Shown piece after piece: positions 2,711-31,833 of a stretch of DNA of 64,000 nucleotides (positions within the stretch are counted from its first letter, which is position 1; each line of letters opens with the position of its first letter). The notes beneath the pieces were generated by a model. That model was not told the DNA's origin. It worked only from the letters and a program-made list of their open reading frames with translations, and ran no database searches. This DNA comes from a candidate division CSSED10-310 bacterium. Lineage in GTDB: Bacteria; CSSED10-310; JAFGJC01. The stretch covers positions 1 through 64,000 of the forward strand of contig JAFGLW010000004.1 of NCBI GenBank assembly GCA_016927905.1, written 5' to 3'. The translations under genes and the position numbers were made by a program.

Positions 2711-4855
2711 ATGGACCGTTTCCGCACGTCATACCGGCATCTGGTTCCCGTAATTGTGTTCTTCTGCGTCCTGCAGATCCTGCTGTTTGCGCCGCGGCTG
2801 AATTCCGACGGCGCCTACTATTTCGAATTCGTTCGTTCCCTGGTCATCCAGAACGACCTGAATTTCGATGACGAACGGGAGTTTTTCACCTGGGAATGGG
2901 TGCCCGTATTCCGCAACTATCTGCCGGGCGACTGGGACAATACCGGATATCCGCCCAACATCTTTTCCTTCGGTCCCGCCGCCGCCTGGCTGCCGGTCTA
3001 CCTTCTTGTTCACTGGTTCGTGCTGCTGGCGAACCATCTCGGGGCTTCGTTTTCGACGAACGGCTACAGCCTGTTGTACCGGTTTTTCCCCCTGCTTATG
3101 TCGCTGTTGTGCGGCCTGGCGGCCCTGTTCGCGATCGACCGGCTGGGGCGGGATGCCGGCTACCGGCCGCCGGACCGGGCGGCAGGACTTTTTCTGATGC
3201 TCGGGGCGTCCCACTGGCCCGCATTCATTTTCGTCACGCCGGCGTTTTCCCATTCCCTGAGCGTGCTGACGGTTTCGATATTTCTTCTGGCCTGGTACCG
3301 GTCTCGCGACGCCGGCTGGAACGGGAAGGGGTATGCCCTGTACGGCGTGCTGGGCGGTCTGGCCGTTCTGGCCAGATGGCAGAACCTGTTCTGCCTGGTT
3401 CTGCCGCTTCTGGATGCCGCAACCTCCCTCGTGTTTTCTCCAGACCGGCGCTCGTTTTTCCGGCGCTTTTTTCGCTGGACCATCTTCAGTGCAGCCCTAT
3501 TACTGACTGTATCCCCCCAGTTGATCGCCACATGGATCCTGTATGGCACGCCCGTCACCGATCCGCAGGGTGAAGGCGGCATGCTCTGGATGTCCCCCCG
3601 GATCCGGTTGATCCTGTTCGAGGGAATCAAGGGATTGTTCACCGTCAACCCGATCCTGCTGGTCGCCACATTGCTGATCCCGCTGATTTTCCGGAAAAAT
3701 CTCCGGCTGGGATGGGGATTGACCGTTCTGTTTGTCATCCAGCTTTATATCAACGCCGTCCGGCGGGACTGGGCCGGCGTGGGATTCGGCATGCGCCGCT
3801 TTTTGAATCTCGTGCCGGTGTTCGCCCTGGGTCTGACGGCGGGTTTCGATTGGCTCCGGACCCGGAGGCGGAAATTTGTCATCGGTTTATGCTGGACCGC
3901 CGGGATTGCCGCGATCGTCTGGAACCTTCTGTTGATGGCGCAATACTATTATTCCGAACTGGGCGCGCCCTGGACGACGTTCCCGCCGTCCGCCATGATC
4001 CGGAACCAGTTCACGGAAGCTCCCGCCCTGCTGGCAAAACTGGTCGGATCCGGCCTGTTCGCATCGGGTCTGCACGGCGATGCCGCCCATCTGATTCTCG
4101 CGGTCGCCGGGTTACTGCTAACCACCCTGATTATCGCCGTTTTCGTCCGTTTGCGACCGGCTGAACCGGCTCTCGACCGGTTATTTCGGCGTCTTCTGTC
4201 CGTCGCCGTGCTGTGGATCGCGGTTCTCGACGGGTGGCTGCTTCTGAGTGCCGGATCGGCGACGATGTTTCATGCGATTGAATTGCTGCCGGGACCACAT
4301 TTCGGAAGGCCGCGGCTGCTGAGGTTGAATGACGCTTCGGGATATCTGGGATTCCCCGGCGGCCTGGTGTTCGGCCCCGGGCCGCGGTTGTGCGTGATGG
4401 ATGTCCGGGCGGAGTATGTCCGGGACCAGTTCCTGGCGCTGGGACGTCTCGCTGTCGAACCGCACCGACCCTGCCGGAACGAAGCTCTCTGGCGATGCGA
4501 ATTTGCTGGACAATTCGACGCCCGCAGCCTGATACTCATCTCCAGGATCCCATCCGGGCCGGTTCCCGCCGGAACGGAGATCGCCGAAATCTCCGTGACC
4601 GATTCGACCGATCGCCGTCATGCATTCCCCGTACGGGCCGGATATGAAACCGGTTCCGGTATTGACAGCATGCGTTCATCCACAACCGACCGGTTGGTTC
4701 GGGACTATCCTGCCGTGAACCGGATGACGACAAACAATACCGCCGATTATCGCGTGACGTTCGATTGGAAGACATCCGTTTCAGTGCGTACACTGGAGAT
4801 CGCATTCCGCGGATATCCGGTCGTCTGGGAAATTCACGGCCTGGCGTTTCGATGA
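2711..4855 (+). CDS. Polytopic membrane protein, putative GT-C superfamily glycosyltransferase (ArnT/PMT-like), with a ~230-aa C-terminal soluble domain.
   Basis: There are about 12 predicted TM helices. NFDDEREFFTW in the first periplasmic loop resembles the DE motif of ArnT/PMT (GT39/GT83). Confidence 0.5.
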   Translation: MDRFRTSYRHLVPVIVFFCVLQILLFAPRLNSDGAYYFEFVRSLVIQNDLNFDDEREFFTWEWVPVFRNYLPGDWDNTGYPPNIFSFGPAAAWLPVYLLVHWFVLLANHLGASFSTNGYSLLYRFFPLLMSLLCGLAALFAIDRLGRDAGYRPPDRAAGLFLMLGASHWPAFIFVTPAFSHSLSVLTVSIFLLAWYRSRDAGWNGKGYALYGVLGGLAVLARWQNLFCLVLPLLDAATSLVFSPDRRSFFRRFFRWTIFSAALLLTVSPQLIATWILYGTPVTDPQGEGGMLWMSPRIRLILFEGIKGLFTVNPILLVATLLIPLIFRKNLRLGWGLTVLFVIQLYINAVRRDWAGVGFGMRRFLNLVPVFALGLTAGFDWLRTRRRKFVIGLCWTAGIAAIVWNLLLMAQYYYSELGAPWTTFPPSAMIRNQFTEAPALLAKLVGSGLFASGLHGDAAHLILAVAGLLLTTLIIAVFVRLRPAEPALDRLFRRLLSVAVLWIAVLDGWLLLSAGSATMFHAIELLPGPHFGRPRLLRLNDASGYLGFPGGLVFGPGPRLCVMDVRAEYVRDQFLALGRLAVEPHRPCRNEALWRCEFAGQFDARSLILISRIPSGPVPAGTEIAEISVTDSTDRRHAFPVRAGYETGSGIDSMRSSTTDRLVRDYPAVNRMTTNNTADYRVTFDWKTSVSVRTLEIAFRGYPVVWEIHGLAFR

Positions 4856-4971: not shown

Positions 4972-5499
4972 ATGAGTCAGGAAATCGAACCGAGAACACC
5001 GGGTAGGGAATTCACAATTCTGGAGACGATCGCCTGTGCGGTGCCCGGAGTCGCAGGGTATTTGAAGAAGGAGAAAGCCCGGGACAGCGATCAGCGGTAC
5101 CGGATGTTTCTGACGGATCGGCTGGCCGGAATTAAAACATCTCTCGAAACATTAAAACGGAGCCGGGTGGACGAATCCGTTCTGGAAGGTCTGGACCGGC
5201 TGGAACGACTCTGCCGGAAGCTGGATCGTGCGATGGATTCGCTCCGGTACGCTGCCCGGGGATATTCCGGAATGTTCGACGGGGTGAAGGTGCGGGAGCC
5301 GGAATTGAAGCGGCTGGAAGGGTATGATCATATGCTGGCCGGATTGATATCATCGATACACATTGCGTCGGGAAAACTGATTGCCGGGACCGGTGCATTC
5401 GGCGATGTCCGGTCCGGCGTGCAATCGATGGAAGACATGCTGGAGGAGTTGATTCATGCAATCGGGCAGCGCCGGCAGGTTCTGGAACATTTTGAGTGA
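4972..5499 (+). CDS. Hypothetical coiled-coil protein, first gene of the SPFH/Zn-ribbon operon.
   Basis: RBS gggaggttg lies before ATG 4972. The protein is helical and charged. Its stop overlaps the next gene's start region. Confidence 0.5.
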   Translation: MSQEIEPRTPGREFTILETIACAVPGVAGYLKKEKARDSDQRYRMFLTDRLAGIKTSLETLKRSRVDESVLEGLDRLERLCRKLDRAMDSLRYAARGYSGMFDGVKVREPELKRLEGYDHMLAGLISSIHIASGKLIAGTGAFGDVRSGVQSMEDMLEELIHAIGQRRQVLEHFE

Positions 5500-5516
5500 T
5501 GGAAGGGGGCACGAAA

Positions 5517-6500
5517 ATGTCTCAATTTATGGAAGTACTCGAATGGTTTGACGATACCGGCAAACAGATGGTGGTTCGGGTTCCGCAGGAGGGTTCGGCG
5601 GAAATCAAGTTCGGAGCGCAGCTGGTGGTGCGTGAAAACCAGGCCGCAGTCTTTTTCCGCGACGGTACAGCTCTGGACACGTTCGGACCGGGTCGGCATA
5701 CCCTGACGACGCAGAACATCCCGCTCCTGACCAAAGCGCTGGCGTTGCCGTTCGGCTTCAAGAGTCCATTCCGGATCGAAGTCGTTTTCGTCAACTGCAA
5801 GATATTCACCGACATGAAATGGGGGACGAAGGATCCGGTGACCTTCCGGGATTCCCAGCTTGGAATGGTCCGTCTGCGAGCTTTCGGGCGGTTCACGACC
5901 CGGATCAAGAATCCGATGCTCATGGTGAACACCCTGGTCGGAACCCAGGGCCTGTTCGCGACCGAATCCATCGAATCGTATCTCAAGGATATCATCGTCG
6001 CGCGCCTGAACGATCTTCTGGGGGAGACTCTGGTGTCGATACTGGACCTGCCCCGTAATTACGATGAACTGGGAGCGGCCGTCCGGACCCGCCTGATGGA
6101 CGATTTTTCGAAGTTTGGCCTGGAACTCCTGGATTTCTTCATCAGCGCCATCACGCCACCGCCCGAAGTGGAGCGGATGATCGACGAGCGGTCCGGCATG
6201 GCCGCGGTTGGAAATCTGGACGATTTTACGCGTTTCAAAGCGGCGAAGGCAATGGGTGATGCCGCATCCGGAAAGGGTGGCGACGGTGCCGGTGAAGGTG
6301 CGGCAGCCGGAATGGGACTGGGTGTCGGTGCCGGTCTGGGGATGATGATTCCCGGGATGATCCGGGGTGCGATGCAGCCGCAGAAAGGATCTCCCGGACC
6401 GCAAACCTCGGAGGGATTCTGCGGCAAATGTGGCGCAGCCCGGCGGCCGGGTGACCGGTTCTGCCCGCAGTGCGGCACGAAATACGACGACCGAGACTGA
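5517..6500 (+). CDS. SPFH/Band-7 family protein (PF13421-like, YdjI-type) with a Gly-rich linker and a C-terminal zinc ribbon.
   Basis: MSQFMEVLEWFDDTGKQMVVRVPQEGSAEIKFGAQLVVRENQAAVFFRDG...FRIEVVFVNCKIFTDMKWGT matches the YdjI-like SPFH family. The C-terminus is CGKCG...CPQCG. The track ORF starts at GTG 5496; ATG 5517 is preceded by the RBS ggaaggggg. Confidence 0.8.
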   Translation: MSQFMEVLEWFDDTGKQMVVRVPQEGSAEIKFGAQLVVRENQAAVFFRDGTALDTFGPGRHTLTTQNIPLLTKALALPFGFKSPFRIEVVFVNCKIFTDMKWGTKDPVTFRDSQLGMVRLRAFGRFTTRIKNPMLMVNTLVGTQGLFATESIESYLKDIIVARLNDLLGETLVSILDLPRNYDELGAAVRTRLMDDFSKFGLELLDFFISAITPPPEVERMIDERSGMAAVGNLDDFTRFKAAKAMGDAASGKGGDGAGEGAAAGMGLGVGAGLGMMIPGMIRGAMQPQKGSPGPQTSEGFCGKCGAARRPGDRFCPQCGTKYDDRD

Positions 6501-6505
6501 GCGGC

Positions 6506-7258
6506 ATGAAAATCGAATGCCCGGCATGCGCCGGTCCCGTGAACATCCTGCCGGATGACCGGTATCTTCGATGCGAACACTGCGATTCAACGATCCACGT
6601 CGAACTCGGCGAATCCCTGAGGCATACCACATTCAAATTGACCGTTCCGGAGGATCATCTGCGCGGTTTGATCGTCAGGGAATTGAAAGAACACGAACTG
6701 CATGAACCGGTATCAATTCGCTCGATCCGTCTCACTTATATTCCTTTCTGGAGATTCAAAACGGATCGAGAGATCCTTTACCGGCCGGCTGCAACCCTTG
6801 TGGAGCCGTTCTGGGACAACTATGTGCCCCGGTCCGGAGAACTTCAGTATTTCGATCCGACCGCGATCGGTCATGCCCAGTTGATCGATCCGGACATCTA
6901 CCTGGAATCCGCACTGGCAAAACTGTCGGATCCCGAGATCGCCGGTCAGGCGGACATGGAGCCGTCGCTTGTTTTCATCCCGTTTTACCGGATTGAGACC
7001 AGCTATGGGCGAACGGCGGTCGCCGTTTATGTTTCGGGTCACTCCGGTAGAATTTTTTTTGACAACCTGCCGCTCGCCCCGGCCATGATGATGAACCGTA
7101 ATCTTGCATTCACGGCGGGTATCGTGTTTTTTTCATATACTCTGGTCACGTATCTGTCGATCCGGTATACCGGGAACTTCCTGATGGTACTGCTGACAAA
7201 CCTGGTGCTTACAGCCGGACTTTACAGGCTTCTGATGAAAACGGTAATCAGGCGATGA
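6506..7258 (+). CDS. Zinc-ribbon membrane protein, paralog 1. It has an N-terminal CxxC-x17-CxxC ribbon, two [hydrophobic]4-P-[FIV]-[WY] motifs, and C-terminal TM helices.
   Basis: MKIECPACAGP...RCEHCDS, then LTYIPFWRF and SLVFIPFYRIE. The ATGA start overlaps the next gene. Confidence 0.55.
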   Translation: MKIECPACAGPVNILPDDRYLRCEHCDSTIHVELGESLRHTTFKLTVPEDHLRGLIVRELKEHELHEPVSIRSIRLTYIPFWRFKTDREILYRPAATLVEPFWDNYVPRSGELQYFDPTAIGHAQLIDPDIYLESALAKLSDPEIAGQADMEPSLVFIPFYRIETSYGRTAVAVYVSGHSGRIFFDNLPLAPAMMMNRNLAFTAGIVFFSYTLVTYLSIRYTGNFLMVLLTNLVLTAGLYRLLMKTVIRR

Positions 7259-8421
7259 TTCCGGTGCAGAAACTGAGTTGCATTCATTGCGGCGGCGCGC
7301 TGGCGCCGGCCCCGGGACAGAAGATCATCCGGTGCTCATACTGCCGGGGAAAAAACCTTTTGCTGCATGATTCGGATTTAGCCAGATACTGCGTCTCGAA
7401 CCGGCTGACCGCCGAAGACGTGCTGGACAGGGTCCGGACGACAATCGCCCGAACACGGGAACAACCCGCCGGACCGGCCGGGAAAATCCGCCTGATGCAG
7501 CCGCATCTTTTCTGGGTACCTTTCTACGAAATCAGCGGAACGAGACTGTCGCGGTTTCTAACGGACAAGTTGAAACAGGACGAAATCCCATTTTCGAATC
7601 TCCGCATGCGCCCGCCCACCCGCGATTGGGCTCCCGGAAGAACGATACAGCCCACATTCCGGGAACAGCTTTCCCGGGCTTCTCCCCATAAGACCATCCG
7701 GGACACCCGTGTGATCCTGGGCGATTTCGCCCTGGATGACCCTGCGGTAAATCTCCCGGAGTGGAATCTGAACCAAATCAAACTGTCCAGAACCCTTCGG
7801 GAAAACAGAGACTGTCCGCTCCAGCCGTTCAGTTTCCGCAGACTGCAGCGCGCGGGAACGGTTCTTCAACCGGACCAGTCTCCGCAGAAATTCGCACAGG
7901 CCCACACATACGTCATGACCGCCAGGACATTGCAGGACAGCCGCATCCTGGAACAGGAAATCAGTCTGGTTTATTATCCTGTCTGGCGGGTTCTTTACTC
8001 TTTTCGAAATGCCGCCTTACCGGTCATGGTGGACGGATTCACCGGGTCCATTCTGCACGCACGGCTGCCAATGAGTGAGACCTTCAGGATACTGGCGTTT
8101 CTGGGTGCAACCGGATCGCTCGGGTTCGGCCTGGGCGTCTTCCTGGCCTTGGCTGCCAGTTTGTGGAAACCATCCGAGATCATGATAAACCTGTTTGTAT
8201 TGATCGGCCTGTCCACGATGGCATTCGGTTTCCTTATTTTCGGAATTATGGCTTTTGCCTGGGTCCACCTGCGATATTCCGCGGAGATCATCATTCGGGG
8301 CGATCGCAGAGATATCCGGTTTGTCGGAAAAACCGGGAGTACGCTGCCCGAGCGATTGTTTGAAAAATTTGCCCGTTGGACGGGTGAGCGGATAACGAGA
8401 GGTCTTGAAAAACATGGCTGA
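7255..8421 (+). CDS. Zinc-ribbon membrane protein, paralog 2.
   Basis: CIHCGG...CSYCRG, then HLFWVPFYEI and SLVYYPVWRV. It has 3-4 C-terminal TM helices and is coupled on both sides. Confidence 0.55.
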   Translation: MIPVQKLSCIHCGGALAPAPGQKIIRCSYCRGKNLLLHDSDLARYCVSNRLTAEDVLDRVRTTIARTREQPAGPAGKIRLMQPHLFWVPFYEISGTRLSRFLTDKLKQDEIPFSNLRMRPPTRDWAPGRTIQPTFREQLSRASPHKTIRDTRVILGDFALDDPAVNLPEWNLNQIKLSRTLRENRDCPLQPFSFRRLQRAGTVLQPDQSPQKFAQAHTYVMTARTLQDSRILEQEISLVYYPVWRVLYSFRNAALPVMVDGFTGSILHARLPMSETFRILAFLGATGSLGFGLGVFLALAASLWKPSEIMINLFVLIGLSTMAFGFLIFGIMAFAWVHLRYSAEIIIRGDRRDIRFVGKTGSTLPERLFEKFARWTGERITRGLEKHG

Positions 8422-9067
8422 CCGCGCGGTCCGGATAGCAGCCTGTACATGCTCCCGGTGCGGCGCCGAACTGGATGGATTGGATAACGACCGGATTTTC
8501 ACCTGCCGGCGATGTTCAATCGGGTTCGACGTATTCACCGAACCCTTCCGTATCCATCCGATCCGGTTTGTCGAACCGGTGCTCCGGGAACCAGCTCCCC
8601 TGATCTATCTGCCGATCTGGCAGTTTCTCATTCGGGCGGAAATTCACGGAAATGATTCCTCCCGGTTGGAAAAAGCAAAAACCGTTTTGCCGGAAAGCCT
8701 GCTGGTCATCGCCTTCAAGATGCACGGCTGGTCGGTGTTCGGCAACCTGAATCTTCTGTATGCAAACCGGCGGGTCGACCTGAAATATGCGGAGGGTGTT
8801 TCCCGGCCGCTGGTGGGATGCAGGCGAACCGGCCTGGCAGCGCAAAGCCTGGTGGATTATATCCTTCTGGCTGCAATCGACAGGACGGTTGATGTAACCG
8901 GGCTGACGCTTGAGATACATACAGACCAGCTGCTGCTCCTGGGATACCCCTACTACGAGCTGGACAGCCGGCTGAAGGATGCCGTCAGCGGTGACGAATT
9001 CCGGTGTATCGCAGTCGACGACCTGGCTGAAATACGTGCAATCGAAGCCGGGACCTCGCGGGATTGA
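8414..9067 (+). CDS. Zinc-ribbon protein, paralog 3 (no TM region).
   Basis: CTCSRCGA...CRRCS, then LIYLPIWQFLI and LLLLGYPYYEL. The ATG start overlaps the upstream stop by 8 nt. Confidence 0.5.
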   Translation: MADRAVRIAACTCSRCGAELDGLDNDRIFTCRRCSIGFDVFTEPFRIHPIRFVEPVLREPAPLIYLPIWQFLIRAEIHGNDSSRLEKAKTVLPESLLVIAFKMHGWSVFGNLNLLYANRRVDLKYAEGVSRPLVGCRRTGLAAQSLVDYILLAAIDRTVDVTGLTLEIHTDQLLLLGYPYYELDSRLKDAVSGDEFRCIAVDDLAEIRAIEAGTSRD

Positions 9068-9164
9068 CTGTTTTCCCTTGCATCCGGTATCGATCCGGAG
9101 ACGATTATGTTTGAAAAAAGTCTGGTTTAGCAGTATACTCTGTCTGTTGCGGAAAGGGCCGAAT

Positions 9165-9758
9165 ATGATTGCCTTCAAATGCAGATATTGCGGAAAGTCA
9201 TACAGCTTTGAAATTTTGCCCATTCCGGATGAGGGGGCGGAATTCAAATGCGCCAAATGCGGTAAAAACAGCCGGCTCCTGAAACGCGGCAAGGTGGTGT
9301 TCTGTATTGGATCGGAGAATTCGGACGAGCTTGAGCAGAGCGCCACCATGGAACTGGCCGATTCCTATCAGTCCGCGGTCGAAGACGCGGTAGCCCCGGA
9401 GGAACTGGAATCCCGGCTGCGCGGCATGTACCCCGAGTTGCCTTACGACACGGAATTCAGGCTTGGTATCGTCAAGGGTCCCGATCAGGGAACGACGTTT
9501 ACCCTGACCAAACCGAGCGTCTCGATCGGCAAATCCGGATGCGACATAAACCTGGCCGACGGGAGAGTATCCAACAAGCACTGCCAGATAGAAATTTACG
9601 GCAATCAGATGATCGTTCTCCGGGATCTGCAAAGCGACGGGGGCACATATCGCAACAACTATCCGACGACCTTGACCTGTCTCCGGCCCGGAGACTCCCT
9701 GCAGATCGGCAACTCCGAGCTGATCCTGATTCAGGCACAGAAAAAACTGGCGAAATAA
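9165..9758 (+). CDS. Zinc-ribbon plus FHA-domain protein.
   Basis: N-terminal CRYCGK...CAKCGK, then an FHA core (VSIGKSGCDINLADGRVSNKHCQIEIYGNQMIVLRDLQSDGGTYRNN). RBS ggaaaggg lies before ATG 9165. Confidence 0.7.
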   Translation: MIAFKCRYCGKSYSFEILPIPDEGAEFKCAKCGKNSRLLKRGKVVFCIGSENSDELEQSATMELADSYQSAVEDAVAPEELESRLRGMYPELPYDTEFRLGIVKGPDQGTTFTLTKPSVSIGKSGCDINLADGRVSNKHCQIEIYGNQMIVLRDLQSDGGTYRNNYPTTLTCLRPGDSLQIGNSELILIQAQKKLAK

Positions 9759-9768
9759 CCTGTCGGGA

Positions 9769-10185
9769 TTAAGCGGAAAAAGCGCCGGCGGGTTCTTCCA
9801 GTGGCCGGCACGCCCCCACAGGACAGATTTCGGCGCATTTTCTGCAGGCGATGCACAGGGCGGGATCAATTTCGAAAAGAAGGTTTTCGGTAATCGCGTT
9901 GGTGGGACATTCCGGCAGGCATGATCCACAGGCGATACATTCCCCTGTGATGAAGTAGGGAATGCGGTCCCGGGGTATTTTCTCTTGATATTTCAGGAGA
10001 TTCACCTGGATTTTTGCCAGTTTGAAATTCCATTCCGCCCGGAGCGATTTCAGGGTGATCCTCAATTCATACAGAGAATTCCGGATTTCATCGATATCCT
10101 CCCCATTCCGGATTCGAGCCGTTCGGTTCACCAGTGCCATTACCAGGGCCACAACCGAAATGATCAAAATAACCGCCGTCCACAT
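9769..10185 (-). CDS. Membrane-anchored 2x[4Fe-4S] ferredoxin-domain protein.
   Basis: It has an N-terminal TM helix and two CxxCxxCxxxCP motifs (CIACGSCLPECP and CIACRKCAEICP). Confidence 0.7.
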   Translation of the reverse strand: MWTAVILIISVVALVMALVNRTARIRNGEDIDEIRNSLYELRITLKSLRAEWNFKLAKIQVNLLKYQEKIPRDRIPYFITGECIACGSCLPECPTNAITENLLFEIDPALCIACRKCAEICPVGACRPLEEPAGAFSA

Positions 10186-10297
10186 GTTTCAGCCTCCTCT
10201 CATGCCTGCAGGGAGTTCCCATGCAGGTTAAGACCTGTCATACTTTGAGTCAAGGGAAAAGGTGCGGCATAATGCGCTTTGAGCCGGTGACGGGAAA

Positions 10298-12055
10298 ATG
10301 GATCGATTCGTGAACCCAGCAGAAAAACCTTCCGGACTGCGAATGGCTGCATTCGTCGGTATGGGTATCGGTACGGGTGTGTTGAGGGGATGCATCGAGG
10401 CTTGGTTGATCGTGGCCCGGTATCCCTTTCGTCCAGGCGGAGATCGATTCATTGAATTGATGATTGAGTGCGCGGTTGCCTATGGACTGGCGGTGGGCAT
10501 ATCCGGCACGGTTCTGGCCTGGCTGATGTCGCGGGTGATCCGGCCCGGTCATCCCTGGAGATATCTCCTGCCTGTCGCATTCCTCGTGGCGATCGTGGCG
10601 ATTGATGTGGCCGGCTGGATCTCCGCACCGGTTTCGCCGGATCTCCTGACCGGGCCGGCACCGGTTTCGGACGGTTTCGCCGGTGACAATATCGTTCTCA
10701 TCACGCTGGACACCTGCCGGGCGGATCATCTACCCATGTACGGATACCCCCTGGCCAATACGCCCTCACTGGCCCGGCTCGCCCTGTGGGGCAGTGTCTT
10801 CCGGGACGCCGTAACCGCCATCCCGGTAACCACCCCATCCCATGTAACCCTCATGACCGGACTGGATCCCCCGGTTCACGGAAGCCGGTTTAATGCCGTT
10901 CCGTTCGAACTGCCGTTCCCGACCCTGGCCGGGGTTCTTTCCGGGCATGGATTGCTGACGGGCGCTTTCATCAGTGCTTTCCCGCTGATGGCAGATGTCT
11001 CGGGTTTACAAAAAGGGTTCACGGTCTATGAACAATTGCTCTGCCCAAGGAAACTGGATCCCCTGTTTTATCGCACGACCCTCATGAAACCTTTTCTGAA
11101 ATCCGGCCCGTTCCGGCCGGCGGAACGACCGGCCGATCAGGCGGTCGATGCCGCGCTGGCCTGGTGGAGCTCCGGCGGCAACCGGTCCCGGTTCACCTGG
11201 ATACATCTGTACGATCCGCACGCGCCCTATGAACCGCCCGAATTGTACCGGCGGATGTTTTCCGATTTCCCGAATGCGCCGGACATGCGGGTTGAAGACA
11301 TCCTGGCGATGAACAGCGGTCCGAATCCGCCGGATGACTTGACGGCGAAGCGTTATATCGAGTGTTATGACGGAGAAATCGCGTTTGCGGATCGGGCAAT
11401 CGGCCGGCTGCTGGGAGAGATTCAACGCCGGGGTGAAGCAGACAGGACATGGATCATCATAACCGCCGATCACGGTGAGAGCCTTGTGGAACATGACTAT
11501 TTCTTTTCCCACGGGGATCATCTTTATGACGTTTCGCTCAGGATTCCACTGGTTTTCTTTAAAAGAGACCGGATCCCCGCAGGGCGGATCCTTACGGGTG
11601 ATGTATCACTCGCGGATATCACGCCGACCCTGCTGAACCTGACAGGCATGATCGATGAGGCCCATCCCTGGAACGGCATGGATCTTACCGGCAGCCTGTT
11701 AGCGGGAGGTCGATTTCCGGAACGCAACATCTATCTTGAAACCGGTTCCGGCGTCTACATTCGGGCTCATGCTGCGCCGGATGCCGGTATCCGGAGAAAG
11801 ACCCGCGGTGTTCGGGCCGGCCCGGCAAAATACATCCTGGATCCGGACGGCCGTGGAAAACTATATCATCTCGGGATCGATCCGGGTGAAAATCACCCGA
11901 TTCATCCCGCCGGTGATGCGGTTGCCTGCCGGATGTCAGCCGATCTGGCGGATTATGTCCGCCGCCGGGAACTTCCCGGCCGGCATCCCCTGCACCTGCC
12001 TTCCCCGGAAACGGTTGACCGGCTGCGCGCATTGGGATATATCGACCCATCATGA
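10298..12055 (+). CDS. Alkaline-phosphatase-superfamily enzyme with an NPP/sulfatase-like fold. It has a Thr nucleophile motif T-T-P-S-H and 3-4 N-terminal TM helices.
   Basis: LITLDTCRADHLPMYGY (metal-site DxxRxD) and VTTPSHVTLMTGLDPPVHG. The TxPxH...TG...HG pattern is like NPP-type phosphodiesterases and unlike the CxPxR of sulfatases. Its stop overlaps the next start (ATGA). Confidence 0.7.
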   Translation: MDRFVNPAEKPSGLRMAAFVGMGIGTGVLRGCIEAWLIVARYPFRPGGDRFIELMIECAVAYGLAVGISGTVLAWLMSRVIRPGHPWRYLLPVAFLVAIVAIDVAGWISAPVSPDLLTGPAPVSDGFAGDNIVLITLDTCRADHLPMYGYPLANTPSLARLALWGSVFRDAVTAIPVTTPSHVTLMTGLDPPVHGSRFNAVPFELPFPTLAGVLSGHGLLTGAFISAFPLMADVSGLQKGFTVYEQLLCPRKLDPLFYRTTLMKPFLKSGPFRPAERPADQAVDAALAWWSSGGNRSRFTWIHLYDPHAPYEPPELYRRMFSDFPNAPDMRVEDILAMNSGPNPPDDLTAKRYIECYDGEIAFADRAIGRLLGEIQRRGEADRTWIIITADHGESLVEHDYFFSHGDHLYDVSLRIPLVFFKRDRIPAGRILTGDVSLADITPTLLNLTGMIDEAHPWNGMDLTGSLLAGGRFPERNIYLETGSGVYIRAHAAPDAGIRRKTRGVRAGPAKYILDPDGRGKLYHLGIDPGENHPIHPAGDAVACRMSADLADYVRRRELPGRHPLHLPSPETVDRLRALGYIDPS

Positions 12056-13413
12056 AAACGATCCTGATCAAGCCCTGCTGGTCTTATCCGGTCGATCCGG
12101 GAGATTCCACATACAACCGGAACTGGCCGCCGCTTTCCCTGCTGAACTGCGCCGCCCTGATGCGCCGGGAAGGATTGGACGCGGATGTTCTGGACGCCAA
12201 TGCCGAACGATTGAGCCCGGATGAAACCGCGAACCGAACGGAGGGATACGACAGGGTATTCGTCACGTCCGCCAGTCTGGACCGGTGGCAATGCCCGAAT
12301 CTCAGGATCGACTCCTTTCTCAAGACGGTTCATGCCATCCGGAAAAAGAATGTCTCCCTGCATGTCATGGGTACTCACGGAACCGTACGCTCCCGGCAGA
12401 TCCTGGATATCACGGGCGCTCAGACGGTCATCTGCGGGGAACCCGAGGACACGGTTCTGGATATCACCCGGGGTCTTGACCTGGAGGATATCCCGGGAAT
12501 CGTATTTTACCGGAATGGATCCTTCATCCGGAATCCGCCCCGTGAACCGCTCGATCTGGCGCAACTGCCGGTTCCAGCATACGATCTCGTCGACATCGGC
12601 CAATACTGCTATGAAGTCATGGGTGACCGGTTCGCGCTCCTGGAAGCCTCCCGCGGCTGTCCGTTCCAATGTATCTTCTGCGTCAAATCCATGTACGGCA
12701 ATGGATTCCGGGTCAAACCGGCTGCCCGGTTCATTCAGGAGATCGACGCCCTGATCGATGAGTTCCGCGCCAGGAATATTTATTTTATCGACCTGGAATT
12801 CACGGTGAACCGGAAACTGGTCGAAAATGTGTGCGATCATCTCATCAAACGGGGATCTCCAGTGAAATGGTGTTGTCAGACCCGAACCGATTCCGTGGAT
12901 ACCGAACTTTTGAAACACATGAAGAAAGCAGGATGCCAGATCGTTCATTTCGGCGTGGAAACGGGATCGGAGCGGATCCGGCAGACCCTTAAAAAGGGCA
13001 TCACCGCTCGCCAGGTCATCGAAGGCATGAAAGCCGCCCGGGAAGCCGGAATACAGACCGTCTGTTTCTTCCTGTTCGGTCTGCCCACGGAAACCAGAGA
13101 GGAGATGGAGGAGACCATCCGGTTTGCCAAGGTTCTGAATCCCACCTATGCATCATTTCATATCGCCCTTCCCTATCCGGGAACGGAGTTTTACGACATG
13201 GTGCAGGATGAACTGGGAACCGAACTGCTTCCTCCCGCATACACCGGGATGGTTTCATACGAGACACTGGAGAAGATAACCCGCCGGGCTTTCCGATCGT
13301 ACTACATGCGCCCGCGATATATCGCCGGCCGGTTGAAAGACCGGGATTTTTCAACTTTTTTCAGGCAGGCGAAGTTCTTCATGGTATATTTAAAAAACCG
13401 CTTGTGGAGCTAG
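12052..13413 (+). CDS. Cobalamin-binding radical SAM protein (class B).
   Basis: It has an N-terminal B12-binding Rossmann domain and a CxxxCxxC motif (GCPFQCIFC). It is about 450 aa. Confidence 0.8.
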   Translation: MKTILIKPCWSYPVDPGDSTYNRNWPPLSLLNCAALMRREGLDADVLDANAERLSPDETANRTEGYDRVFVTSASLDRWQCPNLRIDSFLKTVHAIRKKNVSLHVMGTHGTVRSRQILDITGAQTVICGEPEDTVLDITRGLDLEDIPGIVFYRNGSFIRNPPREPLDLAQLPVPAYDLVDIGQYCYEVMGDRFALLEASRGCPFQCIFCVKSMYGNGFRVKPAARFIQEIDALIDEFRARNIYFIDLEFTVNRKLVENVCDHLIKRGSPVKWCCQTRTDSVDTELLKHMKKAGCQIVHFGVETGSERIRQTLKKGITARQVIEGMKAAREAGIQTVCFFLFGLPTETREEMEETIRFAKVLNPTYASFHIALPYPGTEFYDMVQDELGTELLPPAYTGMVSYETLEKITRRAFRSYYMRPRYIAGRLKDRDFSTFFRQAKFFMVYLKNRLWS

Positions 13414-13416
13414 GGC

Positions 13417-14331
13417 ATGAAACAGGACGACGGTTATTTTAACACCAGACTGAGTTATGAACCCAGGCGGGACGTTGTCTGGAAAGCGATCGTTGAATAC
13501 CTGCAACGGTTTGTCCCGAACGACGCCCGGATTCTTGAGCTGGGTGCCGGTTACTGCTCCTTCATCAACCAGATCAAGGCTTCCGAAAAACACGCCCTTG
13601 ACATCTCCGCCATCACCCGGAAACATGCCGGAACCGATGTCAAAGTCTCCATTCAAAACTGCACGAATCTGGGTTCCTACCGGTCGAACATGTTCGACGC
13701 CGTTTTCTCCAGTTTCCTTTTCGAACATCTCTCCCGCGAAGATCTGGACCGGGTGATGAACCAGTTGAGGCGGATCATCCGGACCGGGGGTGTCCTGATC
13801 ACGATGTTACCCAACTACAAATATATCAGCCGGCACTATTTCGACGATTACACGCATCTCCAGGTGTTTTCCCATATCAGTTTCACCGATTATCTTTCTT
13901 CCCGGGGATTCGAACCGACCGAAGTGCAGGGTCGTTTCATCCCCTATACTTTCAAATCGAGACTTCCCAAATCCGCTTTTCTCACCCGAATCTATCTGCA
14001 TCTTCCCTGGCGCCCGTTCGCCGGCAATATGCTCGTGATCGCCCGCAACCCGGAATACAAGCCGTCTCAGCCGACCCGGCAGACATTCCGCAGGCATGTG
14101 GAAAGCCCGGCCGACCCGATCGCTCCCGCATCCATTCTCAAGGATGGACAACCGGATCCGAGCAGGATCCGGCGGTTTACGCCCAAACCGGACAAAAATG
14201 CGCCGTCTCAACCTGAGGGAAGAGACCGGCCCGGGCAGCATCAGGCCGCTCGATCCCGGCCTCGGTACAAACCCAATCGATCCCGCAATCCCCGGAAAAG
14301 AGCTTCCGGGAACCTGGATCCCGGAGAATAA
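13417..14331 (+). CDS. Class I SAM-dependent methyltransferase with a ~95-aa Arg/Pro-rich C-terminal extension.
   Basis: ILELGAGYCSF (GxGxG motif I). The MTase fold ends near residue 210, and a low-complexity basic tail follows up to stop 14331. The start lies 3 nt after the rSAM stop. Confidence 0.7.
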   Translation: MKQDDGYFNTRLSYEPRRDVVWKAIVEYLQRFVPNDARILELGAGYCSFINQIKASEKHALDISAITRKHAGTDVKVSIQNCTNLGSYRSNMFDAVFSSFLFEHLSREDLDRVMNQLRRIIRTGGVLITMLPNYKYISRHYFDDYTHLQVFSHISFTDYLSSRGFEPTEVQGRFIPYTFKSRLPKSAFLTRIYLHLPWRPFAGNMLVIARNPEYKPSQPTRQTFRRHVESPADPIAPASILKDGQPDPSRIRRFTPKPDKNAPSQPEGRDRPGQHQAARSRPRYKPNRSRNPRKRASGNLDPGE

Positions 14332-14332: not shown

Positions 14333-16552
14333 TCAGAATTTTTCAGGGATGGCAGTCAGAACTTCCTGAGCGTTCCGATACCGATCGGCGGGATTTTTGG
14401 CAATCATTTTCATGGTGACGGTGTTCAGCCATTTTGGGACTTCCGGACGGATTTCCCGGGGAGTCGGCGGGATTTTCTCCAGCTGCTGCTCCAGAACTTC
14501 GTTGATGTCCGATCCCTGGAAAGGCATCTGGCCCGTGATCATCTCATACAGGGTGATACCCAGTGAATACAGATCGGACTGCACGGTCGCGGGATCTCCG
14601 TGAATCTGTTCCGGAGCGATATACTCGGGTGTTCCCCGGACCGTTTTGTCCCGTTCGACGTCACCGGATATCCTGGCGATACCGAAATCCACAATGGTCA
14701 CCCGTTCGTTTTCATCGATAAAAATATTCTGCGGTTTGATGTCCGAATGGACGAGTTTTTTCTGGTGGCTGTGGGAAAGCGCCGACAACACCTGTGCAAA
14801 AATTTTATTGATGGATGGAAAGGATAACCGCCCGGACTCCCGTAAAATGCTCTTCAAATCGCGGCCGTAAAGGTATTCCATGGAGACAAACCATAGATTA
14901 CCGGCACGGTTCAGATCATATATTTTGATGATGTTCGGATGCGCCAGCAACCGAGCCAGGGTGACCTCCCGCTTGACCATCTCGATCAGATCCGGATCGT
15001 AGGAATACTTGGGGCGGAGAATCTTCAGCGCGACGGCCAGATTCAATTCCCGGTCCGCAGCCCGGTAAACGATCCCCATTCCGCCCTTGCCCAGCAATTC
15101 AAGCAGTTCATATCGATTGTTGATGACCATCCCGATGGGTAATTCCCCCACTACGGTGTCGCTTTTCTCCGCATTGATCTCTTCGCTCATAGCCGCCAGC
15201 CAGTTCAGATACTGCCGGGCTTCCTTGTAATCCAGCCGGAGATTGACGATTTTCTGGAAAGCCTGGAGAGATTCATCGATGATGCCCTGGTCATAGAGAG
15301 CGCAGGCATATTCATAGATTAGGTCGATATTTTCATTGGATACGGGAAGATTCAGGACGCTGTCCACGTATTTTTTCCCGGTCTCGATTTTCCCCAGGCG
15401 GAAATAACATATCGCCAGCAGTTTCCGAACCGTTCCGGCGGATGGATGATCGTCCGGGACCCTCAGGAGCAGACGGAGCGCTTCGTCGTTCTCTCGGCTG
15501 TTCAGATGCAATTGGGCCGCCCGTGTGAAGTTTTGATTACGGATGTGAAGCTGGATGGCCTTCCCGACAAATCCCAGCTCATCGTATAGATTCGCCGCCG
15601 TTTCGATATTTCCGGCAAGTTCATACATCCGCGCGGCCTTTTCATAGTCACCAGCTCGGAAATACATCTCCGCCGCCAGCATGAAATCACTGACCTTCTC
15701 ATATCTTTCGGCAGCCAGATCGTATTTCCCTGCCTGCTCATAGTTTTCAGCCGCCAGAGACCAGTCGCACTGCTTATCTGCCATTTCGGCCGCCTTCAGA
15801 TGATCGCCCGATTCTCCCGATCTTTTCGCTTCCATCCGGATGGCCTGGCCATAACGGTTCAGCGCTTTCAACAGCCGGATGGACGCGTCCGTGTTTTCCG
15901 CCTGGTCGTAGCATTTCAACGCGGCTTCGGCTTGCCCGGCCTGCTCGTACAATTCCCCGGCCCGGTTCCAATCCCGGAACATTTCATGGATTTCCGCCGC
16001 CCTGACCAGGTTCGGAACCAGCCGCCAGGCTTCCGCAGCACGGAACAAAAGAATCCGGTGCTCCTTGTCGTCGATCCGGGGACCTCCGAATGAATGGGCG
16101 AGCGGACTCTCAAGCTCCGAAGCCTGTTCGAAACACACCGCCGCACTGCGATACATCCCCGCACTCATGTACAGTTCCGCCGCCCTCCGATATTCCATCT
16201 CCTTTTCCATCATCCGGGCAGCTTCCGAAACCACACCACTCTGCTCGAACATTTCAGCAGCATCCCGGAACCGTTTGGCCCGTTTATACATCATGGCCGC
16301 CTGGAAGGTATCGCCGGCCTGTCTGAGCAGATCCGCGGCATGCTTGAAATCGCCGATTTTCCCGTAATGCTCCGCCGCCTGATCGATCAACCCGACGCGT
16401 TCGCACAGTTTGGCAGCCTTCAGAAACAGGTTTTCCCTGACAAACAATTCGATCGCTTTTTCATGATCACCTGCCAGGACATAATATTCCGCCGCCCGGA
16501 GATATTCCTTCCTTCGCTCCAGTTTCCTGGCTTTTTTGATATAATCAGGCAC
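14333..16552 (-). CDS. Ser/Thr protein kinase with N-terminal TPR repeats.
   Basis: The C-terminal Hanks kinase has LGKGGMGIVYRA, HSDIKPQNIFI, DFGIAR and GTPEYIAPE. The N-terminus has about 10 TPR-like repeats. Confidence 0.85.
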   Translation of the reverse strand: MPDYIKKARKLERRKEYLRAAEYYVLAGDHEKAIELFVRENLFLKAAKLCERVGLIDQAAEHYGKIGDFKHAADLLRQAGDTFQAAMMYKRAKRFRDAAEMFEQSGVVSEAARMMEKEMEYRRAAELYMSAGMYRSAAVCFEQASELESPLAHSFGGPRIDDKEHRILLFRAAEAWRLVPNLVRAAEIHEMFRDWNRAGELYEQAGQAEAALKCYDQAENTDASIRLLKALNRYGQAIRMEAKRSGESGDHLKAAEMADKQCDWSLAAENYEQAGKYDLAAERYEKVSDFMLAAEMYFRAGDYEKAARMYELAGNIETAANLYDELGFVGKAIQLHIRNQNFTRAAQLHLNSRENDEALRLLLRVPDDHPSAGTVRKLLAICYFRLGKIETGKKYVDSVLNLPVSNENIDLIYEYACALYDQGIIDESLQAFQKIVNLRLDYKEARQYLNWLAAMSEEINAEKSDTVVGELPIGMVINNRYELLELLGKGGMGIVYRAADRELNLAVALKILRPKYSYDPDLIEMVKREVTLARLLAHPNIIKIYDLNRAGNLWFVSMEYLYGRDLKSILRESGRLSFPSINKIFAQVLSALSHSHQKKLVHSDIKPQNIFIDENERVTIVDFGIARISGDVERDKTVRGTPEYIAPEQIHGDPATVQSDLYSLGITLYEMITGQMPFQGSDINEVLEQQLEKIPPTPREIRPEVPKWLNTVTMKMIAKNPADRYRNAQEVLTAIPEKF

Positions 16553-26291: not shown

Positions 26292-27260
26292 ATGAAATGG
26301 AACATATTGCTGTTTGCCATCTGGATCGCTTCCGCCGATGCCGGTTCAACCGATCCGCCCAGCCTGATTCCCTGCAGCGCGGAATCGGTTCCGAAACAGG
26401 CCGTCCCGGTTCAACCGGACTGGCTGGAAATGGGACCCGGCATTCTGAGCATGCTGAAGGAGGATTTCAGGGGAGTCAGTACAGTCCGTATTTCCATCGA
26501 CTCGAACCCGGAATCCGGCTCCGCCGCAGATCACCTGGTATTGTATTTTCAGCACCATCCGGTGTGGCTGATGAGTCCTTCCGGGGAATTCAATCCGGGA
26601 GCGGTATTGCTGTACGATCTGTCCGGTATCTCAGAATATCTGCGTCTTTTGCCGATCGATGTCTGGGACAGCCTGGTTTTCGCCTTGGAAAATCCGGATG
26701 ACCTGACCCTGTCGGCGATAACGGTGAAACACAACAATCAGACCATCCTGGACTGGAACGGAACCGCGACACTCACAGGGTCCGGAATTTCTCGACTCGA
26801 CATGGGTATTTCGATCCTGTCTTCAAAACTGTCTCAGTGCCCCGAGACACCGAATGGGATCGCATTCCGCGCGCTCCAGGAACTGGGCAAGGATGATGGC
26901 ACGAAATATGCCGATGAATCCCCGGGAGGCTGGTGCAGCGAATTCGCCGCCTGGGTCCTCCGCCACCACGGCTGGGATACCCCCGCCGGATCGATCGGAA
27001 GCCGGCATATGAGAGATTTCTTCTTAGGATATGACAGGCTGTTCGCCATCGAAGACGTATACAGTGGCGATTACACGATTCAGATGGGGGATTACCTGTC
27101 GATGTTCGACGGCGTCCACAGCGGATTGTTCCTTGCCTATCTGGGACCGCCCGGACCGCCCGGACCCGGCACACGGGTTCTCACCATCGAAGGGGGCAGC
27201 AGGGTCGAATTGTGCACCCGCTGTCTGGAAGATTTCGATCACATCGGGAACGCTCAGTAA
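26292..27260 (+). CDS. Secreted protein with a C-terminal CHAP/NlpC-P60-like papain-fold domain (tentative).
   Basis: It has a signal peptide (MKWNILLFAIWIASADA). GGWCSEFAAWVLRHHGW followed by a downstream DGVHSG resembles a CHAP Cys...His pair. Confidence 0.5.
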   Translation: MKWNILLFAIWIASADAGSTDPPSLIPCSAESVPKQAVPVQPDWLEMGPGILSMLKEDFRGVSTVRISIDSNPESGSAADHLVLYFQHHPVWLMSPSGEFNPGAVLLYDLSGISEYLRLLPIDVWDSLVFALENPDDLTLSAITVKHNNQTILDWNGTATLTGSGISRLDMGISILSSKLSQCPETPNGIAFRALQELGKDDGTKYADESPGGWCSEFAAWVLRHHGWDTPAGSIGSRHMRDFFLGYDRLFAIEDVYSGDYTIQMGDYLSMFDGVHSGLFLAYLGPPGPPGPGTRVLTIEGGSRVELCTRCLEDFDHIGNAQ

Positions 27261-27349
27261 ACCGACCGATACCGGAACTGCCGGAAATGGTATGTTTTGC
27301 CTGTCCCGGGTGGATTTCCCCCTCACCGGGAATTGACAAATCAAGGGAC

Positions 27350-31155: not shown

Positions 31156-31833
31156 ATGCCTTCGATGAATCTCGTAATGGTATTGAAAAGGTCGGATCTG
31201 TTCGCGGATGTGGGAGATTCCCATCTGAAGGCGATTTTGAGCGGCAGCCGGATGAGACATTATGAAAAGAACGACTTCATTTTTTTCGAAGGCGATGAAG
31301 GCAGCGCATTCTATCTTCTGGTGGAGGGTTCGGTAAAGCTGGCAAAATCCTCCGCAGACGGCCAGGAAACACTGGTCAAACTGGTCCGGCCGGGTGAAGT
31401 ATTCGCCGAGATCATTCTGTTTGAAAAAAGCGGCTATCCGGTCACCGCCGAATCCGCAGGGCCTTCGAAAGTCCTTGAAATATCCAGAAAACATTTCCTG
31501 ACGCTGCTCGACGACACCGGTTTCCGGAATGAATTCATCGCGCTGCTCATCCGCAGGCAGCGATATCTTGTAAACCGGATTCTGGTTCTGACGGCATATG
31601 ACGTGGAAGAACGTTTTTTCATGTTTTTACGGGAGCGATACGGAGCGCATCAAACCTATCGTATCGACGTATCCAAACAAGATATGGCGTCAGCCATCGG
31701 CACAATTCCGGAAACGTTTTCGCGAATGCTGAAACGGTTGAAAACAAATAAAACTCTTCGATGGACCGGCAAAACATTGCATCTGGCATCCGGGTTCTGG
31801 GAAAACCGCGAGGATCATGACCGAAAGGCATAA
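31156..31833 (+). CDS. Crp/Fnr-family transcriptional regulator, likely HcpR-type.
   Basis: It has a cNMP-binding-like beta-roll (FIFFEGDEGSAFYLLVEGSVKL) and a C-terminal HTH (MASAIGTIPETFSRMLKRL). It is divergent from hcp. Confidence 0.8.
   Translation: MPSMNLVMVLKRSDLFADVGDSHLKAILSGSRMRHYEKNDFIFFEGDEGSAFYLLVEGSVKLAKSSADGQETLVKLVRPGEVFAEIILFEKSGYPVTAESAGPSKVLEISRKHFLTLLDDTGFRNEFIALLIRRQRYLVNRILVLTAYDVEERFFMFLRERYGAHQTYRIDVSKQDMASAIGTIPETFSRMLKRLKTNKTLRWTGKTLHLASGFWENREDHDRKA

Follow-up and report, generated by a model that had tools for sequence, protein, structure and literature searches.

What does a bacterium do with a sulfatase-like enzyme, a radical S-adenosylmethionine (SAM) enzyme and a SAM-dependent methyltransferase whose genes overlap or nearly touch? 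The question is raised by a three-gene cassette at positions 10298-14331 of a 64,000-nucleotide stretch of DNA from a candidate division CSSED10-310 bacterium (GenBank assembly GCA_016927905.1, contig JAFGLW010000004.1, positions 1 to 64,000 of the forward strand), which we refer to as a whole as the window. We find that the cassette is real and conserved, and that each of its parts belongs to a known superfamily and to no characterised family. We tentatively favour a reading, to which we give somewhat less than an even chance, in which the three genes are translated together and their products tailor a sugar or head group that belongs to the cell envelope and is bound to the membrane, most likely through polyprenyl phosphate or another lipid. 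The cassette consists of three open reading frames (ORFs), all on the forward strand:

10298..12055 (alternative start 10343), + strand: sulfatase-like enzyme, membrane-anchored, 585 aa (identified by ORF, Pfam, alignment, AlphaFold2 model and Foldseek)
12052..13413, + strand: radical SAM enzyme with an N-terminal B12-binding-like Rossmann domain, 453 aa (Pfam, NCBIfam, alignment, AlphaFold2 model and fold matches)
13417..14331, + strand: class I SAM-dependent methyltransferase, 304 aa (Pfam, homologue lengths and alignment)

In public gene calls the first gene begins at 10343, and its product is 570 aa long. At the junction of the first and second genes, tcATGAaa, the ATG of 12052-12054 overlaps the TGA of 12053-12055; at the second junction the stop codon TAG (13411-13413) is followed by GGC and then by the ATG at 13417, a gap of 3 nt. 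An earlier reading of this DNA, made by a model from the letters alone and called here the original prediction, had given the three ORFs, the ATGA overlap and the 3-nt gap at exactly these positions. Since the cassette is bounded on both sides by genes on the opposite strand (a ferredoxin gene at 9769-10185 and a gene for a tetratricopeptide repeat (TPR)/Ser-Thr kinase at 14333-16552), the unit is a compact three-gene operon. The stop codon of the methyltransferase gene lies 1 nt from that of the convergent kinase gene.

To what extent is this arrangement kept elsewhere? A scan of a genome collection with the radical SAM protein returned 80 loci, the closest ten of which are L002-L011. The order sulfatase-like gene, radical SAM gene, methyltransferase gene is found in 18 of the 18 related loci examined, with the strand and the 4-nt overlaps or short gaps kept. 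The trio lies on one strand in all ten of the closest loci, which are CSSED10-like and where identities to the window's proteins are 57-67% for the radical SAM enzyme, 34-49% for the sulfatase-like enzyme and 52-72% for the methyltransferase. It is also present in four metagenome loci (L088-L091) and in four distant loci with unrelated flanks (L082 and L084-L086; radical SAM enzyme 53-55% and methyltransferase 50-55% identical). The arrangement is more than chance, because the ORFs are long, the domain matches are strong, and order, strand and overlaps are kept in these 18 other loci. The coupled operon of the original prediction is borne out by the same 18 loci, and synteny in relatives, on which that prediction was to stand or fall, is clearly present.

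In four of these loci the trio forms part of a longer array. L082 and L086 encode, in order, a BamD-like lipoprotein, a B12-type radical SAM enzyme (474 aa), the sulfatase-like enzyme, the radical SAM enzyme of the trio (453 or 455 aa), the methyltransferase (216 or 221 aa), another B12-type radical SAM enzyme (476 or 497 aa) and a large TPR protein. L084 and L085 encode the sulfatase-like enzyme, the radical SAM enzyme, the methyltransferase, a B12-type radical SAM enzyme of ~490 aa and a TPR protein. Junctions with 4-nt overlaps occur in both extended arrangements. The two extra radical SAM genes are missing beside the window's trio, which resembles the central part of a cluster that, in its larger form, can hold up to three B12-type radical SAM enzymes. 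The extended cluster ends with a TPR protein of ~750 aa, followed by a bactofilin.

We now consider the three proteins in turn, beginning with the product of the first gene. This protein matches the Pfam Sulfatase family (PF00884) at 132 bits and, over residues 133-195 only, the Phosphodiest family (PF01663) at 43 bits. Its catalytic domain spans residues ~130 to 585 and contains the motifs DTCRAD (138-143), TTPSHVTLMTG (178-188), PPVHGS (191-196) and DHG (391-393), as well as a C-terminal LGY motif; the first three of these are the DxxRxD metal site and the T-T-P-S-H…TG…HG pattern that had been reported from the sequence alone. In an alignment of 24 homologues, T178, at the position of formylglycine in the S1 sulfatases, and H182, at the position of the Arg in the sulfatase motif, are invariant, and so are D138, T139, N199, H303, D306, H308, D391 and H392. 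Among the 120 best homologues, T-x-x-x-H is found in 116, that is, in every one whose motif is readable, and C/S…R in none. Without the motif C/S-x-P/A-x-R, the protein cannot be a formylglycine sulfatase, as the original prediction had correctly seen.

The same prediction had called the enzyme similar to the nucleotide pyrophosphatase/phosphodiesterases (NPPs), and this holds for the nucleophile motif and fails for the fold. The motif T-x-P-x-H…TG and the metal site D-T-x-R-x-D are those of the NPP phosphodiesterases (PF01663; 2GSN), whereas the rest of the fold is of the sulfatase type: in the comparison with this family residues ~132-201 alone align, NPP chains in the PDB as a whole reach no further than ~109-201, and neither an NPP-type overall fold nor a full-length match to that family was found. 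Among solved proteins, those nearest in sequence come from the S1 sulfatases and the phosphonate monoester hydrolases (4UPI, E 2.5e-20; 9IHK, 4UPL, 2VQR and 4UPH). In the AlphaFold2 model (mean predicted local distance difference test score, pLDDT, 87; predicted template-modelling score 0.90), three long helices (12-41, 48-80 and 93-108) precede the catalytic domain, and the model's 50 best PDB matches in Foldseek are all S1 sulfatases or phosphonate monoester hydrolases, with no NPP among them (template-modelling (TM) scores 0.59-0.73, normalised to the target). The S1 sulfatase fold is thus accompanied by its metal ligands, D138, D391, H392 and N199 being invariant. These metal and substrate residues are common to the protein and to the S1 sulfatases and phosphonate monoester hydrolases (4UPH, 2VQR, 9IHK and 6G60); unlike them, it has Thr178 in place of Cys or Ser, His182 in place of Arg, a membrane domain of three helices, and no partner of the formylglycine-generating enzyme or anaerobic sulfatase-maturating enzyme (anSME) kind. 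The one radical SAM enzyme adjacent to it lacks the SPASM domain of such a maturase. Sulfatase maturation of the anSME type is accordingly rejected, the radical SAM protein being without SPASM and the sulfatase-like protein without C/S-x-P-x-R.

A second group of enzymes invites comparison. LtaS, EptA/MCR, OpgB and PptA use a Thr nucleophile to move a phospho-alcohol off a lipid donor and onto an acceptor in the envelope, and they have five membrane helices. They resemble the window's protein in joining an N-terminal membrane domain to a PF00884 domain, which is extracytoplasmic in these enzymes and probably so in ours. They differ from it in that the window's protein has three helices and a catalytic domain nearer to the true sulfatases and phosphonate monoester hydrolases. 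The NCBIfam models for EptA, MCR and YejM score 15-23 bits against cutoffs of ~500-1,200, so that no family match of the LtaS/EptA/OpgB type was obtained.

The charged and polar residues R30, E34, Y62 and D103, all within the helices, are conserved in 11 of 11 orthologues; their conservation suggests that the helices form a functional, substrate-binding membrane domain, not a plain anchor. Distant relatives carry a single Sec-type or lipoprotein-type signal directly before the catalytic domain, two paralogues in the window carry a Tat/lipobox and a lipobox signal respectively, and the 10 most distant homologues in the alignment have one N-terminal hydrophobic segment or none. Because the relatives carry export signals and the number of helices, three, is odd, the catalytic domain is probably periplasmic, with the N-terminus inside and the catalytic domain outside.

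It might be asked whether the first gene shares a pathway with the other two at all, or whether it encodes a scavenging phosphodiesterase or phosphatase that is co-transcribed by chance with unrelated biosynthetic genes. The family is large (>3,400 homologues, many with C-terminal TPR repeats and most of them annotated as 'sulfatase' or 'arylsulfatase A-like'), and two more paralogues are present in the window away from any radical SAM gene, both of which speak for such a reading. But the gene order and the stop/start overlaps are kept even at the low identities of the first gene given above, the trio persists in lineages with entirely different flanks, and the trio orthologues have in common a three-helix domain with conserved charged residues that the 10 most distant homologues lack. 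We regard a chance association as extremely unlikely.

The two paralogues differ from the cassette's enzyme at the nucleophile site. The product of 27212-29365 (+) matches PF00884 at 162 bits, has a twin-arginine-like, lipobox-like leader and reads T-M-P-G-H at this site; that of 31817-33685 (+) matches at 134 bits, has a lipoprotein-like leader and reads T-M-P-S-V, with Val in place of His or Arg. A gene for a Crp-family regulator (31156-31833) precedes the latter.

The second protein matches Radical_SAM (PF04055) at 98.5 bits and the B12-binding family (PF02310) at 28.3 bits, under the gathering cutoff of 32.1. Its cluster motif is C203-x3-C207-x2-C210, and the three Cys are invariant in the family alignment. 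Pfam finds no SPASM, auxiliary-cluster or RiPP-recognition domain (RiPP, ribosomally synthesised and post-translationally modified peptide), and there is no Cys after residue 338, hence none in 388-453. Since it has neither a SPASM domain nor a C-terminal Cys, the protein is not an anSME. The class B architecture that had been proposed for it, as opposed to that of a SPASM anSME, is upheld; we describe the enzyme as class-B-like in architecture, with cobalamin use only putative. Within the Rossmann-like domain lies the motif RWQCP (12286-12297, residues 79-82), of which W79, C81 and P82 are invariant in 19 aligned members from bacteria to archaea.

Does this enzyme belong to a known family? 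As the test of membership we used the curated cutoffs of NCBIfam, with the following scores:

HpnJ (TIGR03471): 182.6 bits, cutoff 577.6; best match, full length
ApyD: 170.7 bits, cutoff 750; second-best match
BchE: 159 bits, cutoff 481
AprD4 (NF033070): 134.5 bits, cutoff 500
TIGR04295: 133 bits, cutoff 400
Ladderane-type lipid radical SAM enzyme: 109 bits, cutoff 360
PhpK (TIGR04479): 106 bits, cutoff 600
MgmA/QCMT family: 105.5 bits, cutoff 360
Sden_1168 (NF038361): 84 bits, cutoff 575
HpnR: 74 bits

Membership of HpnJ, AprD4, BchE, ApyD, PhpK or the ladderane enzymes is rejected, all scores being far under the curated cutoffs, and no hopanoid gene that would suit an HpnJ assignment is found among the annotated neighbours. 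Judged by sequence, the enzyme falls outside every characterised family. Its closest solved chains by sequence are AprD4 (6FD2, E 5e-27) and then 9CCB, which is MgmA/QCMT, the glutamine methylase of methyl-coenzyme M reductase. When its AlphaFold2 model (pLDDT 89) is superposed on solved structures, AprD4 fits best (TM score 0.76, over the full length), ahead of MgmA, TsrM, OxsB, CysS and TokK, which are cobalamin-binding enzymes.

AprD4, the radical SAM 1,2-diol dehydratase of apramycin biosynthesis, thus gives both the best sequence match and the best fold match; it has a similar length (~455 aa), the same succession of Rossmann-like domain and barrel, and a sugar substrate. It differs from the window's enzyme in that the two are 22% identical and the AprD4 model scores below its cutoff. 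The AprD4 substrate is a soluble aminoglycoside, and its genomic context is an antibiotic gene cluster, unrelated to the context of the trio. AprD4 has been described as binding no cobalamin in spite of its Rossmann-like N-terminal domain (2026 review, PMC12931638).

From the class B architecture, the original prediction had gone on to propose that the radical SAM enzyme methylates P or an unactivated C, in the manner of PhpK and Fom3, and that, with the methyltransferase and the first, phosphodiesterase-like enzyme as partners, it could furnish a lipid or glycan of the envelope with a phosphonate or a methylated phospho-head group. The architecture itself speaks for this, as do the cobalamin-dependent methylases among the structural neighbours (MgmA/QCMT, TsrM, CysS and TokK) and the Thr/His nucleophile motif of the first enzyme, which is like that of the NPP phosphodiesterases. 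The step from class B to methylation is weakened, however, because three of the four nearest characterised relatives (HpnJ, ApyD, BchE and AprD4) are non-methylating, namely HpnJ, BchE and AprD4, and two of them, HpnJ and AprD4, act on sugars. All four outrank PhpK (106 bits, cutoff 600) and Sden_1168 (84 bits, cutoff 575). The enzyme is therefore nearest to non-methylating families while being a member of none, a placement that leans against methylation. Nor is a phosphonate context apparent: the PepM signature EDKx5NS does not occur in any frame of the 64-kb window, the window holds no second radical SAM enzyme, and the partner genes of the radical SAM and methyltransferase families elsewhere are glycosyltransferases, not phosphonate genes. 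On this evidence we consider phosphonate or P-methyl chemistry very unlikely.

The third protein matches four Pfam methyltransferase families over their cutoffs (PF08241, PF13489, PF13649 and PF08242; Methyltransf_11, 23, 25 and 12). Its catalytic core occupies residues ~1-215, in which LELGAGYC, conserved, supplies the GxGxG SAM-binding loop and YFDDYTH is invariant in the alignment. The remaining ~90 residues (~216-304, nt ~14062-14328) form a basic, Pro/Arg/Ser-rich tail of low complexity that is specific to the lineage. Homologues occur in many phyla and are 205-240 aa long, ~215 aa being typical; the orthologues of the trio clade range from 213 to 379 aa, their length varying with the tail, and homologues outside the clade are without it. 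The tail is probably disordered and may serve to tether the methyltransferase to the membrane.

What company does each family keep elsewhere? Outside the trio clade, the radical SAM family (43-50% identity) occurs in Bryobacterales, Solibacter and Paludibaculum (Acidobacteriota), in anammox Planctomycetota, Desulfobacterales and Aminicenantes, and also in Aenigmarchaeota, Woesearchaeota and one bacterium of the candidate phyla radiation (CPR). We counted its neighbours by tblastn in 70 loci outside the trio clade (L012-L081). A small family 2 glycosyltransferase (GT2) resembling Dpm1 and ArnC lies within 300 nt of the radical SAM gene in 49 of the 70 loci, and within 4 kb in 53; examples are Paludibaculum fermentans (L072), Kuenenia stuttgartiensis (L080) and an Aenigmatarchaeota locus (L012). 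The best matches of these GT2s are to dolichyl phosphate (Dol-P) hexose transferase, ArnC, AglJ and PgfS, below the curated cutoffs. Membrane glycosyltransferases of the GT-C fold (PF10131 'PTPS_related' and PMT_2) are present in 20 of the 70 loci and a membrane methyltransferase of the PEMT/ICMT type in 11; genes for family 4 glycosyltransferases (GT4), short-chain dehydrogenase/reductase (SDR) epimerases and Wzx are found as well. A sulfatase-like gene lies within 4 kb in only one.

The methyltransferase family (40-51% identical; loci L092-L167 and L087) keeps similar company. Of 80 metagenome loci, 55 have a GT2 within 4 kb of it, and among the 39 loci that are at least 5 kb long 31 do; the GT2 gene is often directly downstream, and an SDR epimerase gene sometimes precedes. 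An SDR epimerase or dehydratase gene is nearby in 13 of these loci. In Pleurocapsa the order is PMT_2 (GT-C), methyltransferase, GT2. A single GT2 partner common to the two families was considered and rejected: because the GT2s beside the radical SAM gene and those beside the methyltransferase gene are of different subfamilies, these are two separate GT2-coupled modules.

For the sulfatase-like family, the locus of one homologue with several transmembrane segments (P0137) reads B12-type radical SAM enzyme, GT2, PMT_2, asparagine synthase (AsnB), Wzx, sulfatase-like enzyme, GT4, and that of another (P0139) sulfatase-like enzyme, GT4, PMT_2. A sulfatase-like gene is also found on the locus of the radical SAM gene in L019, L022 and L048, and beside a gene of the methyltransferase family in L121, L145 and L159. 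All three families, then, are at home in gene neighbourhoods for the assembly of envelope glycoconjugates, a process that uses lipid carriers. The envelope lipid or glycan target of the original prediction gains in plausibility from this recurrence of the three families in glycan-assembly clusters. Because the radical SAM family pairs with one or the other type of methyltransferase (the integral-membrane PEMT/ICMT type in Acidobacteriota, the soluble type in the trio clade), the pattern suggests that methylation of a membrane-associated substrate accompanies the radical SAM reaction.

These neighbourhoods also bear on two further explanations. The first is protein maturation: the radical SAM enzyme and the methyltransferase would modify the sulfatase-like protein before its export, or some other protein or peptide (compare anSME, and MgmA/Mmp10 with methyl-coenzyme M reductase). 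That the sulfatase-like gene overlaps the start of the radical SAM gene, and lies between two radical SAM genes in L082 and L086, would fit, as would the peptide-modifying ApyD as second NCBIfam match and the protein-modifying MgmA as second-closest solved structure. The counts just given tell a different story: of the 70 loci, 49 have the radical SAM gene next to a GT2, and 1 has a sulfatase-like gene near it. Furthermore, no conserved precursor-peptide gene is seen (a 58-aa ORF is found in L084 only), and the enzyme has neither a SPASM nor a RiPP-recognition domain. We judge maturation to be very improbable indeed.

The second is modification of the core of a membrane lipid. The radical SAM enzyme, and with it the extra ones of the extended cluster, would act on alkyl or isoprenoid chains by methylation or cross-linking, like the HpnP/HpnR, glycerol dialkyl glycerol tetraether and ladderane enzymes, and remodelling of the head group would fall to the methyltransferase and the Thr-type phosphoesterase. 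The dominant neighbour of the family is a GT2, not a lipid-synthesis gene, and every score against a lipid family is far under its cutoff, even though the ladderane-type (109 bits) and HpnR (74 bits) models do respond. The occurrence of the family in Acidobacteriota and anammox bacteria would suit such a role; its occurrence in DPANN archaea and CPR bacteria, groups that largely lack lipid synthesis, would not. In favour there are also the extended clusters, with up to three B12-type radical SAM enzymes, and the fact that many lipid-modifying radical SAM enzymes are class B (review, PMC13459092). Taken together, we consider a lipid-core reaction unlikely.

We return to the tailoring of a membrane-bound sugar or head group, for which known systems provide partial precedents. 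In hopanoid biosynthesis HpnI is a GT2 that puts a sugar on a membrane lipid. The pair HpnJ/HpnI, which makes the cyclitol-ether head group of hopanoids, and the calditol synthase Cds share a logic, that of a sugar placed on a membrane lipid and then rearranged by a radical SAM enzyme; the rearrangement of the lipid-borne sugar by HpnJ and Cds has been proposed to be a ring contraction (PMC13459092). A pairing like that of HpnI and HpnJ is seen in the 49 of 70 loci where the window's radical SAM family stands beside a GT2. Unlike HpnJ/HpnI, however, the neighbouring GT2s do not match HpnI, no hopanoid genes are nearby, and the trio itself is without a GT2.

The other precedent is three-component periplasmic glycosylation, with a GT2 of the GtrB/ArnC type, a flippase and a GT-C: the radical SAM and methyltransferase families are embedded in neighbourhoods of GT2 and GT-C, with or without Wzx, and the trio has a Thr-type phosphoesterase where the other clusters have GT2 and GT-C. 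Tailoring at the level of the carrier is exemplified by ArnD, DprE1/E2, AglP and MoeK5; AglP is a SAM methyltransferase that acts on a Dol-P-linked glycan, and MoeK5 a B12-type radical SAM enzyme assigned to the C-methylation of a lipid-linked sugar. In the open-access literature we found no description of a radical SAM partner of the GT2 in GtrB/ArnC-type systems, and we know of no description of radical chemistry on carrier-linked sugars in three-component glycosylation systems.

The scheme that we infer from the observed genes, motifs, folds, coupling and neighbourhoods, in its substrate, topology, order of steps and chemistry of each step alike, would run as follows. At the cytoplasmic face, the radical SAM enzyme would abstract a hydrogen from the sugar and then deoxygenate or rearrange it in the manner of AprD4 or HpnJ; a cobalamin-dependent C-methylation would be a less likely alternative. 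On the same intermediate, the class I methyltransferase would add a methyl group to a hydroxyl, a carboxyl or an amine, and the basic tail would keep this enzyme at the membrane. After flipping, Thr178 of the three-helix enzyme at the outer face would attack a phosphoester of the carrier-linked product, and the phospho-linked group would then either be passed on to an acceptor in the envelope or be released.

Several observations weigh against this scheme. None of the loci that carry the trio has a GT2 or clear GT-C gene adjoining it, so that no source of a lipid-linked sugar is apparent there, and the difference in subfamily between the GT2s on the radical SAM side and those on the methyltransferase side means that no single shared substrate is defined. 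The evidence from context comes from proteins 40-50% identical to those of the window, whose specificity may differ. The match to PF02310 is sub-threshold and the closest homologue, AprD4, is cobalamin-free; we know of no Thr-type enzyme of the S1 sulfatase fold with a known substrate; and the topology is likewise one that we infer.

A more specific form of the tailoring scheme can be stated, which we think quite unlikely. The Thr-type enzyme would be a new periplasmic transferase that replaces the GT-C: Thr178 would attack the phosphodiester of a polyprenyl-phosphate sugar already tailored by the radical SAM enzyme and methylated, and would install the sugar-1-phosphate on an envelope acceptor. 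The radical SAM family would then be a widespread, undescribed tailoring enzyme for sugars linked to lipid carriers, spread over both bacterial and archaeal lineages, CPR and DPANN among them.

What follows for annotation? The label 'sulfatase' or 'arylsulfatase A-like' is probably wrong for the Thr-type family, which, if our assignment is true, would be a large family of the S1 sulfatase fold in which formylglycine has been swapped for threonine. The radical SAM family, HpnJ/AprD4-like and GT2-linked, suggests radical chemistry on carrier-linked sugars, and the small methyltransferases with the YFDDYTH signature would form a distinct family that is also GT2-coupled. If true, this would lead to better annotation and possibly to new envelope sugars or biomarkers in lineages of anoxic sediments. 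The original prediction knew of no described pathway with this combination, and we too have found none: a search of the open-access literature, a scope within which absence is not proof, turned up no account of the cassette, of a GT2-radical SAM pair or of a Thr-type family of the S1 sulfatase fold.

Two further features adjoin the cassette on its 5' side:

9769..10185, - strand: hydrophobic-helix protein with two [4Fe-4S] ferredoxin motifs (ORF, Fer4 Pfam matches and position in relatives)
10245..10273, + strand: sigma-70-like promoter match TTGAGT-17-CATAAT (pattern scan of the 112-nt intergenic region 5' of the first gene; count no higher than in shuffled sequence)

Neither the promoter scan nor the terminator scan gave match counts above the shuffled background, and Rfam has no match to a riboswitch or other RNA upstream of the cassette or anywhere else in the 64-kb window. 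The 138-aa product of 9769-10185 consists of an N-terminal hydrophobic helix, a helical linker and the two 4Fe-4S motifs. Its gene is found at the matching position and orientation in at least seven CSSED10-like loci (L002, L003, L007, L009, L010, L168 and L169), whereas the distant trio loci L082 and L084-L086 lack it. The ferredoxin is a candidate electron donor for the radical SAM enzyme and at most a putative member of the cassette.

The ferredoxin gene and the trio are flanked in turn by genes for a zinc-ribbon/FHA-domain protein (8979-9758, +) and for the protein with TPR and a Ser/Thr protein kinase domain (14333-16552, -). The block of FHA gene (forward), ferredoxin gene (reverse), trio (forward) and TPR-kinase gene (reverse) is kept in L168 and L169, so that the FHA and kinase genes hold their positions there despite differing outer flanks. 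These two flanking genes may place the cassette under phospho-signalling control.

Further upstream, an operon at 5496-9067 (+) encodes an SPFH/Band-7 protein with a zinc ribbon, then three zinc-ribbon-like proteins. These three have Cys-x2-Cys N-termini and no Pfam match, and two of them have hydrophobic C-terminal segments. For one of these genes (7255-8421), L002, L003 and L010 each have a homologue close to the cassette.

A tblastn search for a GT2 or GT-C inside the window returned none. The sole hint is the 714-aa product of 2711-4855 (+), ~5.4 kb upstream of the cassette, whose match to Glyco_transf_22 (GT-C) is sub-threshold at 22.6 bits against a cutoff of 23.8 and which is not consistently kept near the trio. 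A protein of 730 aa, similar in size only, its homology to the 714-aa protein not being established, occupies the corresponding position in L169, not in L168. In L168, a GT-C of the YfhO type is encoded ~6 kb downstream.

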